From a virus (taxonomy: Duplodnaviria; Heunggongvirae; Uroviricota; Caudoviricetes): a stretch of DNA of 64,000 nt. How positions within the stretch are numbered: the first letter of the stretch is position 1; every line of letters starts with the position of its first letter. The position numbers were made by a program, and so were the translations under genes. The stretch lies in the IMG/VR virus record IMGVR_UViG_3300045988_154391, one strand, 5' to 3'. Under the pieces are notes generated by a model that ran no database searches, was not told the origin of the DNA, and saw nothing but the letters and a program-made list of their open reading frames with translations. Below, in pieces: positions 1-27,254 of this stretch.

Positions 1-387
1 CAGAAAAATACGGCTGTTTTCCTGATCGAGCTTAACGCCCTGCGGGTAGCGGAATGCATCATTCTGTCCCCGCTTTTTGAATCGGGGAAAAGCAGCCCGA
101 TTCTGGAAGAAGTTTTTGTAAGCCCGCTCAAGGTCTTTCAGTGACTGTTGCAATGGCTGTGAGGGAGAATCTTTAAGCCATTCGGTTTCAGTGTCTTTTT
201 TCCACTCAACCAACCAGGAAGCCATTTTCGTGTAAGGGATGTATTTTTTACCGGCCTCATGATTCTCATTCTGAAGCGCCAGAGCACGATTGAAAACGAA
301 ACGACATGCGCCTGCGAAGCGCCTCATTTCACGCTCCTGTTGACCATCTGGTCTTAATCGGAATTTGAATGACACCTGTTGTTTCAT
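1..387 (-). CDS. tnpB: IS200/IS605-family TnpB (OrfB, RNA-guided nuclease family), N-terminal ~129 aa only; gene runs off the window start
   Basis: Minus-strand ATG at 387; translation MKQQVSFKFRLRPDGQQEREMRRFAGACRFVFNRALALQ...LKDLERAYKNFFQNRAAFPRFKKRG matches conserved TnpB N-terminal motifs (RFVxN, AYKNFF, FPRFKK). Absent from the ORF track because it is open at the window edge. Confidence 0.6.
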   Translation of the reverse strand, partial: MKQQVSFKFRLRPDGQQEREMRRFAGACRFVFNRALALQNENHEAGKKYIPYTKMASWLVEWKKDTETEWLKDSPSQPLQQSLKDLERAYKNFFQNRAAFPRFKKRGQNDAFRYPQGVKLDQENSRIFL

Positions 388-486
388 GTCACTATTTTAA
401 GCAAAAATAGCCGGGAGGAAAACTGTGCCTTATATCCCCACTATGAGGAGCGTGGGGAGCGGCACATTGGATAAGGCGTAACAGGG
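1..486 (-). mobile_element. Partial IS200/IS605-family (tnpB-type) element; one end near 435-486, rest outside window
   Basis: tnpB N-terminus plus a 7-bp-stem hairpin (TCCCCAC/GTGGGGA, 435-458) just upstream of the tnpB start, as expected for a subterminal hairpin of this IS family. Boundary is approximate. Confidence 0.4.
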
Positions 487-3474
487 ATGAGCTTAAGCGA
501 TCAGGTGGTTATGGCCACCAGCATAGAAACGCTGATCGAGCTGCTAAAGAACCTGCCCGATTACGGGCGGGTTTCGTATGTGGTGACAGCGAAGGGAGAC
601 GAGGTAAAAACGGCGTTTGATATCGTCGATGCCTCAGCTCTTTTGGTATCCAATACTCTGGATGGGAAAATTAATCCAGACTATCCCCAGGAACTTCAGC
701 CGCGCGATCGGACCCGCGCATCCAGCCTTCTTCAGGTTAACCAGATATCCAAGGATTTGCGTCCTGCCCAGCTTACCGATTCCGGTTTATCCAGCCATGG
801 CGCGCCGATAATTGGTGAGGACAATGCCGTTGAGTCAGGTAATGGGCGGACCATGGGGATCATCAAAGCCTATCAGGACGGCAATGCGGATCGGTATCGT
901 GAGTACCTGATTGAACATGCGACCGAATTCGGCATACGACCTGAAAAGGTTGAATCAATGACGGCTCCGGTACTGGTGCGCCGCCGGTTAACTAAGGTTG
1001 ACCGCGTTCAGTTTGCCAAGGACTCAAATATTTCTGATCTTCAGGAAATGGCAGCCAGTGAAAAGGCTTTTGTTGATGCCGACAGCATAACTCCGGCGAT
1101 GATGGCGCTGTTTAACCCATCAGAAAGCGGAGATCTGCTTAGCCGCAGTAATGACGCGTTTATCCGCGGATTCATGACGCAAGTTGGTGCCACACAGGCT
1201 GCTGGCCTTGTAACGGAAGATGGGCGACCAACACGGCAACTTGTAGACCGTATACAAAACGCGATCTTTGCCAAGGCATATAAGGATGCGCGCCTGGTAA
1301 GGATGGTTGCAGAAGAACCTGATCCGGATATGCGTAATGTTCTGACGGCGCTTAATGCGGCAGCCAATGATTTTGTCCAGATGCAGGCTTTATCAGGAGA
1401 AGCGCACAAGCAGGCTGTGACAACTATCGTTGATGGCATTGAAACAGCGGATAGCCTCGATAAAAAGGCGCTGGCGGCATTGAAAGATGCGGTAGACCTG
1501 GTAAGGCAATCGAAGGAGTCAGGCCAACATATTACCGATGTTATTGCTCAGGGGGATATGTTCAGCGAAACAGCCCCGGAAGTGAAAGCTCTCGCGTTGT
1601 TCATCGTCGCGAATAACCGTAGCGCGAAGCGTATGGCCACCGCCTTTAAATTGATGGCACAACGTATAAATGATGAGTTACAGCACCAGGGCCAGGCGCT
1701 GGGGGATATGTTTGGCGGTGGTGATGTGTCGTTACAGGATATCCTTCGCCAGGTGTCTCAGGAACTGGAAAACGAAGGCATGCAAGGGATATCCGGCGGT
1801 CTTTTCGAGTCCGTTTCCGGCGGTAGTTACAACGGTGTTGCTCCATATACCAGTTTGCTATTACATCGGGCATCCGGCATCAAAGACATTATTCATCTGA
1901 TCAGGCTGCTTTCCCGTACAGATCCCCATGATGAACAGCTTGTACAAGTGCTTGCGCATTTTGTTCGAATGCCTGTTGCCGACGTGAAAAAATGGTGCCG
2001 ATTATTCGGTATCAGCAATTCGTTACTTCGCGGCTTGTTAAATCACGCATCCTCCCTTGGGCGCGATGGCTTTGACGAGATAGCGCAGGCGATAAAAAAC
2101 GGAGATATGCCACCAGCTATTGACTGGTTTTCCATTCGCCCAACCAGGGTGAAAGCATTCCTTAGCGCGGCGCATTCGGCATCACCATTGGCAGAAATGG
2201 TTCAGAGGTTGTCGCTCATATTCACAGACCATACCGCGTTGGGTGATCTGACTCTGGACGAGATGAAAGATGCCTCCATTCAGTGGGCCGATCAACAAAA
2301 TGAGGTTAACTCAGACTTCTTGACAGCATTCAGGAAGGCCGTTAGTAAAGCGGATGATGCCCGTGGAATTCTGAAGGCATTTAAGGCATTGCAAAGTCGT
2401 GTTAATAAACATGTCGGTGATATCGATGGGGTAACGGCGGAAGGCCGGGATATCCTTAAAGAGCACGGCATAACGCCAGAGTTTATTGATGAGATCAGGA
2501 CTGATATGCAGCGTGAGGTCGTATCGTCCCTGCAAATCGTAGCCAGAGCTTTGGCGGATGCTAATCCGAAGAGTGCGGCCATTGTTAACCGGGTTATTGG
2601 TGATATTGAAGCATCGGAGGGCATGGGGGCGCTGAAACTCTTCCTTTCGCGAGCGTTTAATCCTAACGGCAATATTCTCCCTGGCATTATTGGTGAGGCT
2701 AAAAAGTATGTCAGTGAAGAAGAACTTGAGCAGCTTGACCAACTACTTAAGCGATTCTCATATAACCCGCAGACACGCTGGCAAATGAATCAGCGAAGTA
2801 TGGGTTCGGTCCACGAGAAAGTGTTATCTGCCATGAACAGTGCGATCGCAAACTCATCCGTATCTGAAGAAAAAGCTCTTGAGTGGGCTGACTCTTTTAT
2901 CACAGAAGAAGTGGAAGAAGCCCGCGCTGGACAGAATGGTGGGATAGACCTGCGCAAGGAACTTGCTGATATTTATCGCCTGACCGGCGGGAAAATATCG
3001 ACCTTATCAAAGGTAGTTCACCACCAGGGAAGGGCATATGCAAATCTAAATGGTGTTGTTGCTGTCAATTTGAACGATGAAAATGCAAGTGCACTGTGGC
3101 ACGAGCTGGGTCATCATCTTGAGTACAGTAACCCTGGTTTGTTAGAGAAAGCCCGGTCATTCCTGAAGGCCAATGTTGAAGGGGATAAGCCATCTTTCGT
3201 CAATATCGGTGGGCGTGGCAAGCCTGAATGGTGCTTCAGATCTCGATTGAGTAATATTTATATGGCGAAGGTATACCCGCCAGCCTCAGTAAGTAACACC
3301 GGGAAAATTCGGCAGAAATCACCGACTATTTCCAAAACGTCAGCAACGGAAGTATTCTCTATGGCTCTTCAGTTGTATCATGACAAAGAGGCCGCTGCCG
3401 CATCACTGATGAATGGTGACGGATTGCTGGAACTGTTATTAGGTGTGGCAAAGGAGCTAAATAATGCAGATTAA
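487..3474 (+). CDS. Large (995 aa) virion/antirestriction-like protein with C-terminal HExxH motif (WHELGHH); possibly DdrB-like
   Basis: Long ORF with start after AGGG; HExxH zincin-like motif near residue 880; sits where the P1 dar/ddr head-protein genes lie relative to ssb-lyz. Specific identity not verifiable here. Confidence 0.55.
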   Translation: MSLSDQVVMATSIETLIELLKNLPDYGRVSYVVTAKGDEVKTAFDIVDASALLVSNTLDGKINPDYPQELQPRDRTRASSLLQVNQISKDLRPAQLTDSGLSSHGAPIIGEDNAVESGNGRTMGIIKAYQDGNADRYREYLIEHATEFGIRPEKVESMTAPVLVRRRLTKVDRVQFAKDSNISDLQEMAASEKAFVDADSITPAMMALFNPSESGDLLSRSNDAFIRGFMTQVGATQAAGLVTEDGRPTRQLVDRIQNAIFAKAYKDARLVRMVAEEPDPDMRNVLTALNAAANDFVQMQALSGEAHKQAVTTIVDGIETADSLDKKALAALKDAVDLVRQSKESGQHITDVIAQGDMFSETAPEVKALALFIVANNRSAKRMATAFKLMAQRINDELQHQGQALGDMFGGGDVSLQDILRQVSQELENEGMQGISGGLFESVSGGSYNGVAPYTSLLLHRASGIKDIIHLIRLLSRTDPHDEQLVQVLAHFVRMPVADVKKWCRLFGISNSLLRGLLNHASSLGRDGFDEIAQAIKNGDMPPAIDWFSIRPTRVKAFLSAAHSASPLAEMVQRLSLIFTDHTALGDLTLDEMKDASIQWADQQNEVNSDFLTAFRKAVSKADDARGILKAFKALQSRVNKHVGDIDGVTAEGRDILKEHGITPEFIDEIRTDMQREVVSSLQIVARALADANPKSAAIVNRVIGDIEASEGMGALKLFLSRAFNPNGNILPGIIGEAKKYVSEEELEQLDQLLKRFSYNPQTRWQMNQRSMGSVHEKVLSAMNSAIANSSVSEEKALEWADSFITEEVEEARAGQNGGIDLRKELADIYRLTGGKISTLSKVVHHQGRAYANLNGVVAVNLNDENASALWHELGHHLEYSNPGLLEKARSFLKANVEGDKPSFVNIGGRGKPEWCFRSRLSNIYMAKVYPPASVSNTGKIRQKSPTISKTSATEVFSMALQLYHDKEAAAASLMNGDGLLELLLGVAKELNNAD

Positions 3475-3775
3475 AATCGCAGCGCCATTAGGTGGAGATG
3501 CCATTATCGAATTTGATGATAATGAAGAAGTTTCCGGGCGTTTAAGCATTATCTCCGGTGACATTACCGAGGACATGATCGCTGAAGCCATAGCTGGGGC
3601 AAATCCCAATAGCTATATGGGATTCGTTAACACCCTTGATGCTCCCGCAAGTGATGTTCTCCGAACGCTGCATCTTTACGCTGGCTGGTTTGTTGATTGG
3701 CCAGCAGTAGATGGTGGCGATGAGGACGACGACGACGATGATTTTGGTGATCATGTAGACCAGATCGTATATTGA
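3464..3775 (+). CDS. Small acidic protein (103 aa, poly-Asp C-terminus)
   Basis: ORF overlapping the end of the 995-aa gene by 11 nt, followed by a terminator hairpin. Confidence 0.45.
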   Translation: MQIKIAAPLGGDAIIEFDDNEEVSGRLSIISGDITEDMIAEAIAGANPNSYMGFVNTLDAPASDVLRTLHLYAGWFVDWPAVDGGDEDDDDDDFGDHVDQIVY

Positions 3776-3778
3776 AGA

Positions 3779-3807
3779 AATCCCGCCAGTCGGCGGGATT
3801 TTTTTAA
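3779..3807. terminator. Intrinsic terminator hairpin between convergent genes
   Basis: Stem TCCCGCC/GGCGGGA (3781-3787/3792-3798) followed by T7 on the plus strand. Confidence 0.6.
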
Positions 3808-4586
3808 TCGCTTTCCACTTCTTCCGTGGTGTTTTCTTGCAGTTCTGTTAATGCAGCACGACATAGGTTCCGGGCATTGGCTATAGCCACACTTTTGACT
3901 TCATCCGTCATCGTGCAGGTAATGTACTGATCGAGTTCTTCAGCGCGGATGATGCTTTTGCCAATCAGAAACTGTATTTGCCAGAGCAGATCGGCATCCA
4001 TAATCAGAATTTCTGCCGGGCCTTCAGGGCCAGCCGGGAAGGAAACATAAGACTGTTTGCCCAGGCCGACAACTCGACAACTTGCTTCAAGAATTGCGCG
4101 CTTGAGGTCTGACTTTATAACGGAAACAGGTTGATTTTCACCAGTGATTACGCCGTTGACATGGAAAGGCATGTAGCTTGAAATACGCTCCACTTTCCAC
4201 ACGCCAGCAAGCGATCCTTCATGCAGCACAATGGGGGTAACCGCGAGTTTCATCTCACCATATAGCTGCTGGCAGATAGCTGGATTGCTGAATACATCTA
4301 AAGGCTCACATTCAAACAGCGGCGCAATCTGCATGAGGTCCATCATGGTCATCCCTGGGGTACGAGCAGTAATGAATCTGCGCATACCAGTATCCATTGC
4401 GCTCCAGATTGCTACACCATGCTTTTTGCTCACTTCTTCAGTAAAGCCAAGGTGGCACATGATGGTTTTTTCGATAGCCAGATCAGAGATCGAAACCTTT
4501 TCGCCAGGCACACCATCATTATTGATGGTCACTTCGACACTCTGACCATTACGCAGGCGGTATTGAATTGCTTTAGTATTTTCCAC
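3804..4586 (-). CDS. Hypothetical protein (260 aa), last gene of the ssb operon
   Basis: ORF 6 nt downstream of the DUF2829 gene on the same strand; no recognisable motifs. Confidence 0.55.
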   Translation of the reverse strand: MENTKAIQYRLRNGQSVEVTINNDGVPGEKVSISDLAIEKTIMCHLGFTEEVSKKHGVAIWSAMDTGMRRFITARTPGMTMMDLMQIAPLFECEPLDVFSNPAICQQLYGEMKLAVTPIVLHEGSLAGVWKVERISSYMPFHVNGVITGENQPVSVIKSDLKRAILEASCRVVGLGKQSYVSFPAGPEGPAEILIMDADLLWQIQFLIGKSIIRAEELDQYITCTMTDEVKSVAIANARNLCRAALTELQENTTEEVESD

Positions 4587-4592
4587 GTTAAA

Positions 4593-5270
4593 TCACTCCA
4601 CTACAAACCAGTCACATGCCAGTAAGTCGCCTACAGAAGGAACCCACGGAACAACTACACCTTGTGCATTTTTTAAGGCGAAATAAGCACCATACGGAAC
4701 GAGGTCGCCGGGGAAATATCCCTTAATGGCTTCCATTCGTGCCGGGTACTGTCCTTCAGGAACCAGCCAGCAGAATTGGTTTTCGCCGTTCCACCCGCGT
4801 CGGGCAACTTTCTTGCCATCCTTCAGCCACATCAGCGCGTCAGAAAAGTCGGCTGCTTCAAGGTCGATTTCTTCTTGTAGAGTAGCGATACCGCCAGCAG
4901 AAATAGTTACGTCCCTGGCTGTAATGAATGTCACCCCATTGTGACCTTCAATGCTGAGCGATACCCCATTTTCGAAGAAGTCGTTAGTCCGACTAAAGCC
5001 TTCTTCAAATGTTTTTTCTGGTGAATAGGACAGAGATCCGTCCTCATAAGCGACCAGATATCCGCCAATTTCTGGTCGGTGTTTTTGCAAAAATATTTTA
5101 TCAACATGGACTTTTACCCCTTCTGGCTCAACGACTTCGATGTTGCAAAAAAGGACCACATCCATTAGGGCGATAATTTCGATATCTTTGATTTTTGAGG
5201 CGCGAACTGTTTTATGGCTTTTGTATTTTGGAAGTGCCGTCAAAAGCTCTTTCGTTGTCATGTTATTCAT
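4593..5270 (-). CDS. Two-domain protein with C-terminal DUF2829 (Thoeris anti-defense Tad2-like) domain
   Basis: ATG at 5270 preceded by GAGGAAAG. C-terminal ~85 aa (ALMWLKDGKKVARRGWNG ... PWVPSVGDLLACDWFVVE) fits the DUF2829 signature. The track ORF extends to a GTG at 5438. Confidence 0.6.
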   Translation of the reverse strand: MNNMTTKELLTALPKYKSHKTVRASKIKDIEIIALMDVVLFCNIEVVEPEGVKVHVDKIFLQKHRPEIGGYLVAYEDGSLSYSPEKTFEEGFSRTNDFFENGVSLSIEGHNGVTFITARDVTISAGGIATLQEEIDLEAADFSDALMWLKDGKKVARRGWNGENQFCWLVPEGQYPARMEAIKGYFPGDLVPYGAYFALKNAQGVVVPWVPSVGDLLACDWFVVE

Positions 5271-5467
5271 AGTCTTTCCTCTGCTTAAAACCTGATGTAT
5301 TGCGCCTTCAGGTGGGTCAGGAATGTTTTCCCACCAGCGAACGCAATATCTCGGGGTGTTCTTTTCGTGAAAAGCGCGTGCCATTGCCAACTTTGGCGTT
5401 TGTTTGCGAGTTCGTGCTTTTGTCGGCGTCTGGACCACCGCTTTTCTTTCAGTCGTTTTTTACACAT

Positions 5468-6125: not shown

Positions 6126-6683
6126 ATGAAGGGAAAAACAGCCGCAGGAGGCGGTGCAATTTGCGCTATCGCGGTGATGATTACCATCGTGATGGGTAAT
6201 GGCAATGTGCGAACCAACCAGGCGGGGCTTGAGCTGATTGGTAACGCTGAAGGTTGCCGACGTGATCCATACATGTGCCCGGCGGGGGTATGGACTGACG
6301 GGATCGGTAATACACACGGGGTAACGCCGGGTGTGCGAAAAACCGACCAGCAAATCGCCGCTGATTGGGAAAAGAATATCCTGATCGCTGAACGCTGTAT
6401 TAATCAGCACTTCCGGGGCAAAGACATGCCCGATAATGCCTTCAGTGCAATGACAAGCGCGGCATTCAATATGGGATGCAATAGCTTACGGACCTACTAC
6501 AGCAAAGCGCGAGGCATGCGAGTAGAAACGTCCATCCACAAGTGGGCGCAGAAAGGGGAATGGGTGAATATGTGTAACCATCTCCCTGATTTCGTGAACA
6601 GTAACGGCGTGCCCCTGCGAGGTTTAAAGATTCGCCGTGAAAAAGAACGCCAGCTTTGCCTGACGGGGCTTGTCAATGAATAA
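6126..6683 (+). CDS. lyz: Endolysin (lysozyme) with N-terminal SAR segment
   Basis: MKGKTAAGGGAICAIAVMITIVMG hydrophobic N-terminus followed by a lysozyme-like body; ATG at 6126. Confidence 0.9.
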   Translation: MKGKTAAGGGAICAIAVMITIVMGNGNVRTNQAGLELIGNAEGCRRDPYMCPAGVWTDGIGNTHGVTPGVRKTDQQIAADWEKNILIAERCINQHFRGKDMPDNAFSAMTSAAFNMGCNSLRTYYSKARGMRVETSIHKWAQKGEWVNMCNHLPDFVNSNGVPLRGLKIRREKERQLCLTGLVNE

Positions 6684-6930
6684 ACTCCGGCAGCTCCGCC
6701 GACTTTCGACAATGAAGTTATCGCTGGCGGCGATAGTTTTTGACTCGATTTTCATGGCGGTATATGTGCTCAATGAGACGTGGCCACTGGAACCGCTATT
6801 GTATGCCGGGCTTCGGCTGTGCCTGACATTTTTGAGCATGGCTGCGAGATTGATGCAGCAGAAAGAAACCGCTTCAGATTGTCCACGCCGCGCGGTGCGC
6901 AAATATATGGCACGAAGGCGAAGGCGATAA
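6670..6930 (+). CDS. Small hydrophobic, Arg-rich protein (86 aa) downstream of lyz
   Basis: ORF overlapping the lyz stop; hydrophobic stretches; ends just before a terminator. Coding status uncertain. Confidence 0.3.
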   Translation: MSMNKLRQLRRLSTMKLSLAAIVFDSIFMAVYVLNETWPLEPLLYAGLRLCLTFLSMAARLMQQKETASDCPRRAVRKYMARRRRR

Positions 6931-6943
6931 TAGTTAACGAGAA

Positions 6944-6971
6944 CCCCGGCAGCTGCCGGGGTTATTTTTGG
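6944..6971. terminator. GC-rich hairpin terminator between lyz operon and pro
   Basis: CCCCGGCAG/CTGCCGGGG palindrome followed by TTATTTTTGG. Confidence 0.6.
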
Positions 6972-6974
6972 TGG

Positions 6975-9705
<2,731 letters not shown>

Positions 9706-25523: not shown

Positions 25524-26716
25524 TAATCATCATCCCCGTATAGCTTGCGGGTAACTTCTTCGTCTTCCTCCTCGTCTTCGTCCAGGTCTTGTTCCAGCCA
25601 TGGGTCGTTTGATACACCTTCAGTATCAACATCTCCATAACCGCCTGTATCAACGATATCGGCGATTTCTTCCCTACGCTGCTCAATCCACAATGCGGCA
25701 TCGGCGCGGCGGTTGGCGGCCCGTTCTCGCGCAACTTTGTCCAGATCTTCAAGAGAAGGGCCACCGACGGCTGTTTGCCTTTCCTCATCATCGGTATTGG
25801 TCTTAGGAGCACGCAGATCGGCTTTGATTTGCTCCAGCATCAGGGGCGGCACTTTTCCGCCATGCGCCTCGATGAATTCAGCTGCTTCCAGCACTGACCA
25901 GTTATTTTCACGCTTTCGTTCGTATGCCAGCTTAACAATGCCAGCTTGCCCCATAGATAAAGCGTGCTTTTCCGCCTCCCGGCTTTCTTTTCGATAGTTA
26001 TTCCGAATGCTGTAAATGGTGTTGATCAGGCTGCTTATCTGCGCGGAACAGCTGTTTAGCATGCTCGCGATACGATATTCAGGCGGAGTCCCTTCATCAT
26101 CGTCTTTTTGCTGATCGCGCATTTCCTGCACCAGACGAATACACGTATCCCTGGCGTTCTCCAGCATAAGGAGATGAGAAAGAGACTTTTCCAGAAGAGT
26201 GGTTTCCAGAACATCGGCCCCGGACCGACGCAACATAGCGCGCGCGGCCTTCCGCGCTTCAACGTTATCTATCAGGTAATCGCCAGCTTCGAATTCAAAG
26301 CGTTCACCATCATCATCCAGGGTGTCGCGTTCCAGGCGATCACGTAAGGTCCGGTGGGCGCGGGTGATCACGTCATGATCATCAGAACGATCATTTATGC
26401 GCTTATTTTGGCGCTTCGCATTCTCGACTGCGGCACTGACAACGGCATTAACCCTTTGTTTTTCCGCTATTTCAGCCGCAATGTGATCACCTGCATGTTG
26501 ATCATTAGAGTGATCAATGATCATGCTTTTTAGTGGCTTCCTGACTGGCTTATTTGGCTTGCGGCTGTCCGCTGTCCTGGTGTCTTCTTTGAAGGCACGG
26601 AGATAACGACGTGCAGTATTAGGGTTAAGATTAAACTCGGCGGCATACTGTGCGATGGTGTAACCACCATCTCGCGCCAGGCGAGCAAAATTCTTCTTGT
26701 GATCGTCCCAGGTCAC
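25523..26716 (-). CDS. pacA: Terminase small subunit PacA (contains pac site)
   Basis: 397-aa ORF with GTG start and acidic C-terminus; the TGATCA hexamer clusters of pac lie inside it. Confidence 0.9.
26365..26523. other. pac packaging site: seven TGATCA-type hexamers in two clusters
   Basis: Cluster 1: TGATCA at 26365-26370 and 26376-26381, CGATCA at 26388-26393. Cluster 2: TGATCA at 26484, 26499, 26511, 26518. Matches the described 3+4 architecture of P1 pac. Confidence 0.75.
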
Positions 26717-26801
26717 TTATGCTTCCTTTCGTAAAAACTCTTTTTGACGCGAGGGTAACGAAAGTCACATGTCAAAAGGCCCGGAACGGGCAAGCAATCA
26801 A

Positions 26802-27254
26802 TCAGATACGTGCGGATGTGGCATTACCGTAATGACGGTGCTGACGGGCCACCTTATTGAAAAGTTGACGCGCCATTACCCAAGGCTGGTGCTCCCGGCG
26901 TTCCTTTTCGTCCTGCGTCATATAGAGTTCGTTCTGGAGTTTTTCATCAAACCGGCGCGGAGCGCGGCTACGGCGAAAGAATTCAGGATTCAGAGAGTGG
27001 ATCTGAAATCTACGTGGGCGTGTACTGTCATCAATCAAAACAGACGAATACTTAGACACAGCGATAGCCTTTAAGCGCAGATAAACATCGCGCTTATCGA
27101 CATCCAGATGCGGGTATTCCTTTTCAAGAATTGCTGCGAGTTCTTTCGCTGATAGAAGAGATTTAGTGCGGATCATGTAATCCGCAATCTCGTACGATGT
27201 TATTCGTGAGTGATTTATTTCCATGAAGTGGCGTCCCTGCCAGTTAAGTAACAT
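26802..27254 (-). CDS. lpa: Lpa, late promoter activator
   Basis: 150-aa ORF with SD AGGTGACAGG, immediately upstream of pacA; C1 operator about 70 nt upstream. Confidence 0.85.
   Translation of the reverse strand: MLLNWQGRHFMEINHSRITSYEIADYMIRTKSLLSAKELAAILEKEYPHLDVDKRDVYLRLKAIAVSKYSSVLIDDSTRPRRFQIHSLNPEFFRRSRAPRRFDEKLQNELYMTQDEKERREHQPWVMARQLFNKVARQHRHYGNATSARI

Follow-up and report, generated by a model that had tools for sequence, protein, structure and literature searches.

The IS200/IS605 family of insertion sequences includes tnpB-only derivatives that are non-autonomous. One member of this family, IS609 of E. coli (insQ/ydcM of K-12), has a length of about 1.34 kb and has cleavage sites with the sequence TTAT on the left and TCAA on the right (Venturini et al. 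2019, PMC6906374). The same study describes an "IS609-like sequence" at positions 25,544-26,881 of pSvP1 (Venturini et al. 2019, Sci Rep 9:18861, PMC6906374), as well as an IS609 copy in pJIE250-3 that occupies a different site, between the head-processing and lysis operons. Neither a role of TnpB as an RNA-guided nuclease nor a target of its guide is discussed there (PMC6906374). We checked the pSvP1 interval and found that it lies between the homologues of ddrB and ddrA and that it is the same insertion as the one present in Salmonella phage SJ46 and Escherichia phage RCS47. It is an annotated feature in the records of both SJ46 and RCS47. The paper on SJ46 is silent about the element, as is a further survey of P1-like plasmids. 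The insertion is already known and is an ordinary feature.

In this study we analyze a stretch of 64,000 nucleotides (the window) from the Caudoviricetes virus record IMGVR_UViG_3300045988_154391. Positions 1-3500 of the window match SJ46, RCS47 and Escherichia phage vB_EcoM-813R1 over the full length with 97.9-99.5% identity, and the same range of identity is observed with many plasmids from E. coli, E. albertii and Salmonella that are mostly ~86-110 kb in size and reach up to 147 kb. Judged by its sequence, the window is an SJ46-like P1-type phage-plasmid. With P1, P7 and other P1-type genomes the match to the window begins at position 471 (98.0-98.5%). The gene order of P1 in this region is darA-ddrA-ddrB-hxr, with the ddrA stop codon located 12 bp ahead of the ddrB start, and in SJ46 ddrA and ddrB are separated by a 1209-bp gene on the other strand, annotated as insQ / transposase IS605. 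Positions 1-470 of the window are very probably the leftmost 470 bp of an IS609-like IS200/IS605 element of 1335 bp that lacks tnpA, that arose by a single insertion at a TTAT and that has since been inherited with the phage-plasmid backbone. The coordinates of the features discussed below are collected in Table 1.

Table 1. Features of the left part of the window, with the basis on which each was assigned
Feature	Position	Strand	Basis
tnpB, 5' part (codons 1-129 of 402), with an ORF that runs on past the left edge of the window	1..387	-	Stop-free translation, Pfam, identity to SJ46
LE (left end), the 83 bp from the tnpB start codon to the terminus of the IS609-like element	388..470	-	Junctions; alignment with eight other IS609-type LEs; DNA fold z = -3.9
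Second 7-bp hairpin, CTATTTT/AAAATAG, just 5' of the tnpB start	392..410		Overlaps the TAAAAT motif
Outer 6-bp stem, TGTGCC/GGCACA, around the LE hairpin	424..465	-	Predicted fold; support weak
Subterminal LE hairpin, TCCCCAC / 10-nt loop / GTGGGGA, perfect 7-bp stem	435..458	-	DNA folding; foot 12 nt from the element end
TTAT target and presumed TAM (ATAA on the + strand), adjoining the LE	471..474	-	Junction comparison with P1
Native remnant of the ddrA-ddrB junction, 16 bp (TAAGGCGTAACAGGG plus the A of the old stop region)	471..486	+	Equal to P1 except for one base
ddrB, 995 aa, Dar anti-restriction capsid protein gene	487..3474	+	98.5% nt identity to P1 ddrB; Pfam ddrB-ParB, E 1.7e-39

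The limits of the element are defined by comparing an empty site with an occupied one. Written in the orientation of the element, with a slash at each junction, the empty site of P1 reads GTTACGCCTTAT/GCTGCCTCTTT and the occupied site of SJ46 reads GTTACGCCTTAT/CCAATGTGCC...GGAGGATGTCAC/GCTGCCTCTTT. At the junctions themselves, GCCTTAT/GCTGCC in P1 is replaced by GCCTTAT/CCAATG...GATGTCAC/GCTGCC in SJ46. The element, which measures 1335 bp in close relatives, is positioned 3' of the TTAT and has not duplicated any target bases. A TTAT also flanks the LE at five further independent sites of IS609-type copies. On the ddrB side the element terminates at window position 470, and homology to P1 resumes at 471, which is 16 bp ahead of the ddrB ATG at 487. 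A first-pass annotation of this DNA had proposed an IS200/IS605 tnpB element directly upstream of a 995-aa antirestriction-like gene, and both parts of this proposal hold up; the element is supported by the TnpB domains in relatives and by the clean, TTAT-adjacent junction relative to P1, and the 995-aa gene is ddrB of P1, with its ddrB-ParB domain (Table 1). The comparison with the P1 ddrA-ddrB junction that it had recommended reveals an uninterrupted junction in P1 and an insertion 3' of the TTAT. Its estimate that the element ends 30-50 bp from the start of the 995-aa gene is replaced by a distance of 16 bp, with the boundary at 470/471. The suggestion that the native upstream context of this gene was displaced is right for the 12-bp spacing from ddrA stop to ddrB start of P1, which is lost through the insertion, and wrong for the nearest 16 bp, which are native.

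At the end of ddrA (SJ46 stretch 5134-5139) the final sense codon is interrupted by the element, such that GCA TAA has become GCG TGA with the G and the TGA donated by the right end (RE) of the element. Since the element supplies both a silent ending for this Ala codon and a TGA stop, DdrA remains 121 aa in length. The old TAA stop codon of ddrA, which is now unused, persists as the complement of the TTAT target beside the LE. The element very probably entered once, by the single-strand mode of its family, 3' of the TTAT that lies within the last ddrA sense codon, and in an orientation in which tnpB is transcribed away from ddrB. The insertion explains the 1.35-kb gap that separates ddrA from ddrB in the SJ46/RCS47-type sublineage.

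DdrB belongs to the capsid-packaged Dar anti-restriction proteins (PLoS Pathog 2026, PMC12810830), and its gene does not appear, on the evidence of its sequence, to have been turned into a pseudogene by the insertion. Transcription of ddrB from the late promoter upstream of lydA would cross the antisense element by read-through, a route that is suggested by the lack of a strong terminator match together with purifying selection on ddrB. A scan for promoters and terminators returned one promoter-like site at window 369-398 that faces ddrB and, on the plus strand, a single weak terminator-like site, with both counts at chance level. The promoter-like site was considered as a relic of the tnpA promoter, and this idea was dropped because its hexamers are not conserved in the matching K-12 sequence. 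Additionally, the iddB gene of P1, a 132-aa antisense ORF within ddrB, is intact in the window (1041-1439, minus strand). On the 3' side of ddrB (window 3464-5438) isaB and the IS1 copy of P1 are missing, and the genes that come immediately after hxr, here and in SJ46 alike, are an isaA-like one of 260 aa and another of 281 aa; in RCS47 an ISSod13-family transposase follows hxr instead (RCS47 stretch 6412-7452).

The window contains the N-terminal part of TnpB, as the first-pass annotation had deduced for the minus strand of 1-387 from three named motifs. The 129-aa translation that runs from position 387 to position 1, MKQQVSFKFRLRPDG...FPRFKKRGQ...SRIFL, is free of stops over its 129 codons and carries the motifs RFVFN, AYKNFF and FPRFKK; its residues 1-48 match Pfam HTH_OrfB_IS605 (E 1.4e-16). 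It is 99.2% identical at the amino acid level to SJ46 TnpB (residues 1-129), a protein that is intact at 402 aa. A search within the window for a second tnpB or a second copy of the element, comparable to the one in pJIE250-3, found none. The portion of tnpB past codon 129, the RuvC and zinc ribbon domains, the RE and the guide RNA region are located to the left of the window and were read in relatives that are 97.9-99.5% identical to it. Both the RuvC and zinc-finger domains and the two IS ends, whose absence the first-pass annotation had named as grounds for giving up the element, are found in these near-identical relatives. For example, the 402-aa TnpB of SJ46 has the domains HTH_OrfB_IS605, OrfB_IS605 (RuvC) and Cas12f1-like_TNB (zinc ribbon), scores 384 bits with the NCBIfam model guided_TnpB, and aligns end to end with the TnpB of ISDra2 (8bf8; E 1.4e-50). 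Its RuvC triad of D183/E267/D363 corresponds to D191/E278/D361 of ISDra2, and all four Cys residues of the two CxxC pairs are kept. Near-identical tnpB segments are also present in Morganella phage IME1369_01 (96.5% over window 1-371), where the product is annotated as a "putative virulence protein", and in Aeromonas phage AP1 (93% over window 200-371).

Each end of the element carries a subterminal hairpin, and the element has no terminal inverted repeats. The 7-bp hairpin at 435-458, correctly taken for the subterminal hairpin in the earlier reading of this DNA, aligns with the corresponding region of eight other IS609-type LEs and is homologous to the CCCCGTCC-TTCA-GGGCGGGG hairpin found in them. 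The LE identity of this hairpin follows from its homology to IS609-type left ends and not from the stem itself. The idea that a 7-bp hairpin is significant alone was rejected, as the window contains 106 perfect ones (loops of 3-12 nt) versus ~39 in mononucleotide shuffles. Relative to the other left ends, the LE hairpin of the P1-borne lineage has a 5' arm that is shifted by 2 nt, a loop of 10 nt versus 4 nt and changes at two stem positions. Because the 5' arm in the window is out of register with the consensus hairpin, a column-by-column test of covariation was abandoned. An LE stem of 6-7 bp is kept in SJ46 and in pZ1323CEC0017-3, and RCS47 has a 6-bp stem that includes one G-T pair. The outer stem (Table 1) has a GCGCC/GGCGC counterpart in IS609 of K-12 with one double (compensatory) change, and it is mismatched in two other copies. 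The hairpin at 392-410 may be an expression signal for tnpB; the TAAAAT motif that it overlaps recurs together with similar pairing in other tnpB-only IS609-like copies.

At the other end of the element, the RE of SJ46 contains a CCACACCC-CGAA-GGGCGTGG hairpin that has counterparts in RCS47 and in K-12. The loop of this hairpin is inverted between lineages, with CGAA in SJ46 (stretch 5150-5170) and pZ1323 versus TTCG in RCS47 (stretch 1650-1670), and the stem is kept. This inversion looks like a hairpin-loop flip. The RE of the element ends in TCAC, and four other IS609-type copies end in TCAA. A relic copy on the chromosome of E. coli GPEC79 (stretch 1670-1710) has an LE hairpin that is a perfect 16-bp palindrome, CCTTATATCCCCGTCC-TTCA-GGGCGGGGATATAAGG; this copy is flanked by TTAC rather than TTAT and adjoins an IS421.

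The element and IS609 have in common the TTAT left flank, homologous hairpins at both the LE and the RE, and an RE that ends in GGAGGATGTCA(A/C). They differ in the LE hairpin, which has 8 bp and a 4-nt loop in IS609 and a 6-7 bp stem with a 10-nt loop in the element, and in the RE tetranucleotide, which is TCAA in IS609 and TCAC in the element. They also differ in gene content: a divergently oriented tnpA separates the LE from tnpB in the K-12 and O177 copies of IS609, whereas the element here is without tnpA. Only 83 bp separate the LE terminus from tnpB, and the Y1 (HUH) transposase gene tnpA is absent from this interval. Identity with chromosomal IS609 insQ is 93.5-94.4% at the DNA level over the part between roughly codon 6 of tnpB and the RE; outside this part, in the LE and the initial 16 nt of tnpB, the sequences are only ~70-80% alike. 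As this chromosomal identity and the matches to both phage tnpB segments break at window position 371, the LE together with the 16 nt at the 5' end of tnpB appears to form a mosaic block of its own.

What is left of tnpA overlies the LE. The plus strand of the LE (window 404-474) reads ...ENCALYPHYEERGERHIG followed by a stop, which is homologous to the C-terminal tail of IS609 TnpA, and the remnant has ENCALYP... here versus ENRALYP... in K-12. In intact IS609 the tnpA frame passes through the LE hairpin, and the equivalent stretch of a related plasmid was annotated by PGAP as a 66-nt tnpA pseudogene (stretch 2463-2528). A tnpA-less form with a conserved ...TTTTCC-N-GGCT-TTTTTGCTTAAAATAG... 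joint and a consensus LE is also found at other sites on other plasmids. Thus, the occurrence of the same tnpA-less architecture at other plasmid sites indicates that it is a recurrent derivative form. For the copy studied here, the altered LE hairpin, the TCAC end and the loss of tnpA together suggest that it no longer transposes.

Plasmid and genome collections give a consistent distribution for the element. In PLSDB, 75 plasmid records span the occupied junction and 276 carry an uninterrupted ddrA/ddrB junction. Variants of the LE with at least 95% identity occur in 64 records among 5426 complete E. coli genomes; among those listed, all are plasmids, of 92-154 kb, most of them ~95-100 kb. 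We looked for the LE variant (at least 95%) in any other context and found it on P1-size plasmids at the ddrA/ddrB junction only, with no evidence of mobility. Three lineages have an element of 1335 bp with an intact tnpB of 402 aa, and they differ from one another by up to 51 substitutions (3.8%). Synonymous divergence is 0.04-0.11 for the element and 0.015-0.07 for the adjacent ddrB. Among the IS-bearing lineages, dN/dS is 0.18-0.23 for tnpB and 0.04-0.12 for ddrB (purifying selection), and both genes appear to be maintained. Some variants near the RE of RCS47 are identical to the K-12 allele, and the low dN/dS of tnpB could come in part from recombination with chromosomal IS609 alleles. The overall pattern fits a single old insertion that was inherited with the backbone by SJ46, RCS47, pSvP1 and the ~75 PLSDB plasmids.

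The position of the insertion also allows a prediction for what its TnpB could act upon. The omega RNA would consist of the 3' end of tnpB and the RE, and its guide would be the adjoining ddrA flank, GCTGCCTCTTTAATGTTGGC..., which runs antisense to the ddrA 3' end. TnpB with this omega RNA would cut at TTAT followed by GCTGCCTCTTTAATGT..., which is the unoccupied ddrA/ddrB junction, and a cut at the empty junction would favour retention or copying of the element. Over more than 22 nt the guide region has the sequence of the P1 empty site, the TTAT is likewise identical, and the same site is found in the 276 IS-free plasmids. The last 175 nt up to the RE terminus are highly conserved and have a consensus fold in which 4 of 54 pairs show double changes among five very similar sequences, a set that lends the fold little support from covariation. 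An Rfam scan of the whole element for omega RNA returned only a sub-threshold match to RAGATH-18 (28 bits versus a gathering score of 44.9).

From these features it might be proposed that the element is a transposase-free, site-locked "homing" TnpB, that is, a transposon fossil that is kept by selection and whose guide would cut the empty ddrA/ddrB junction of rivals for the purpose of exclusion or copying. We regard this proposal as doubtful. We also consider it unlikely that the element acts as a gene drive or excludes competitors without a transposase, a scheme in which TnpB-omega RNA would cut IS-free P1-type entrants that are then either destroyed or converted to IS+ by homologous repair. 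Such a drive would find its target on the 276 PLSDB plasmids that carry the empty site of P1, which agrees in full with TTAT and the guide-equivalent flank, and it would account for a tnpB that is intact and under purifying selection despite the missing tnpA, the restructured LE hairpin and the TCAC end. Experiments on other elements have moreover demonstrated drive on plasmids by an IS200/IS605 TnpB (Mears et al. 2025 preprint, PMC11870625). However, only about one fifth of P1-type plasmids are occupied (75 versus 276), so there has been no sweep, which argues against a strong drive. The element has also diverged to roughly the same extent as its flanks (dS of 0.10 versus 0.06-0.07), as would be the case under plain vertical descent, and co-residence of two such replicons is restricted by P1 superimmunity and incompatibility.

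The possibility that the element is non-autonomous yet still mobile, with the P1-borne copy representing one stop of an active transposon that a chromosomal IS609 TnpA excises and reinserts, is less probable again. Without TnpA the element would be unable to excise or transpose alone; its best prospect of movement would be a TnpA that a chromosomal IS609 provides in trans. A potential source of TnpA is widespread, in that 4868 of the 5426 complete E. coli genomes carry an IS609-type tnpB, some with adjacent tnpA sequences, and the presence of the tnpA-less architecture at other sites and on other plasmids suggests that such derivatives have moved. Against this, the chromosomal tnpA copies that were examined are pseudogenes, the LE variant is known at one site only, the register and loop of the LE hairpin deviate from the consensus that is bound by the cognate TnpA, and the RE tetranucleotide is TCAC and not TCAA. 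Finally, a domesticated, nuclease-dead TnpB that, like TldR, represses a phage or host gene under RNA guidance is highly improbable, for although TnpB-derived TldR regulators are reported on temperate phages and tnpB is conserved here without tnpA, the RuvC D-E-D triad and zinc ribbon are intact in a full-length protein (402 aa) and the native flank continues to occupy the position of the guide, just as it does in transposon copies.

A single old insertion of an IS609-like, tnpA-less element that is passed on with its backbone is the reading that we favour. As such, the insertion marks a sublineage of P1-like phage-plasmids, the SJ46/RCS47 type, and ESBL genes are present on many of these. If its TnpB is active, the element would be a natural RNA-guided nuclease that resides on a phage-plasmid and is aimed at the equivalent locus of IS-free relatives. 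It would then also provide a simple test system for gene drive and inter-phage competition, as occupied and empty alleles are both abundant in nature.

Two further systems are close to the element. The TAM of ISDra2 is TTGAT, and the TAM expected for the element described here is TTAT. ISDra2 has its own tnpA whereas the element here is without one, and the nuclease activity of the latter is only predicted. The TnpB/omega RNA of ISDra2 (PDB 8bf8, 8exa, 8h1j) nevertheless has in common with the element the D-E-D triad and the CxxC...CxxC arrangement, and the logic by which the LE flank supplies the TAM and the RE flank supplies the guide is the same. The drive reported by Mears et al. 2025 (PMC11870625) involves other elements that reside on multicopy plasmids, whereas P1-type prophages have a low copy number and a drive by the element here is hypothetical. 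That case and the present one are alike in that a plasmid-borne IS with tnpB has a guide that matches IS-free copies of the same plasmid (PMC11870625).
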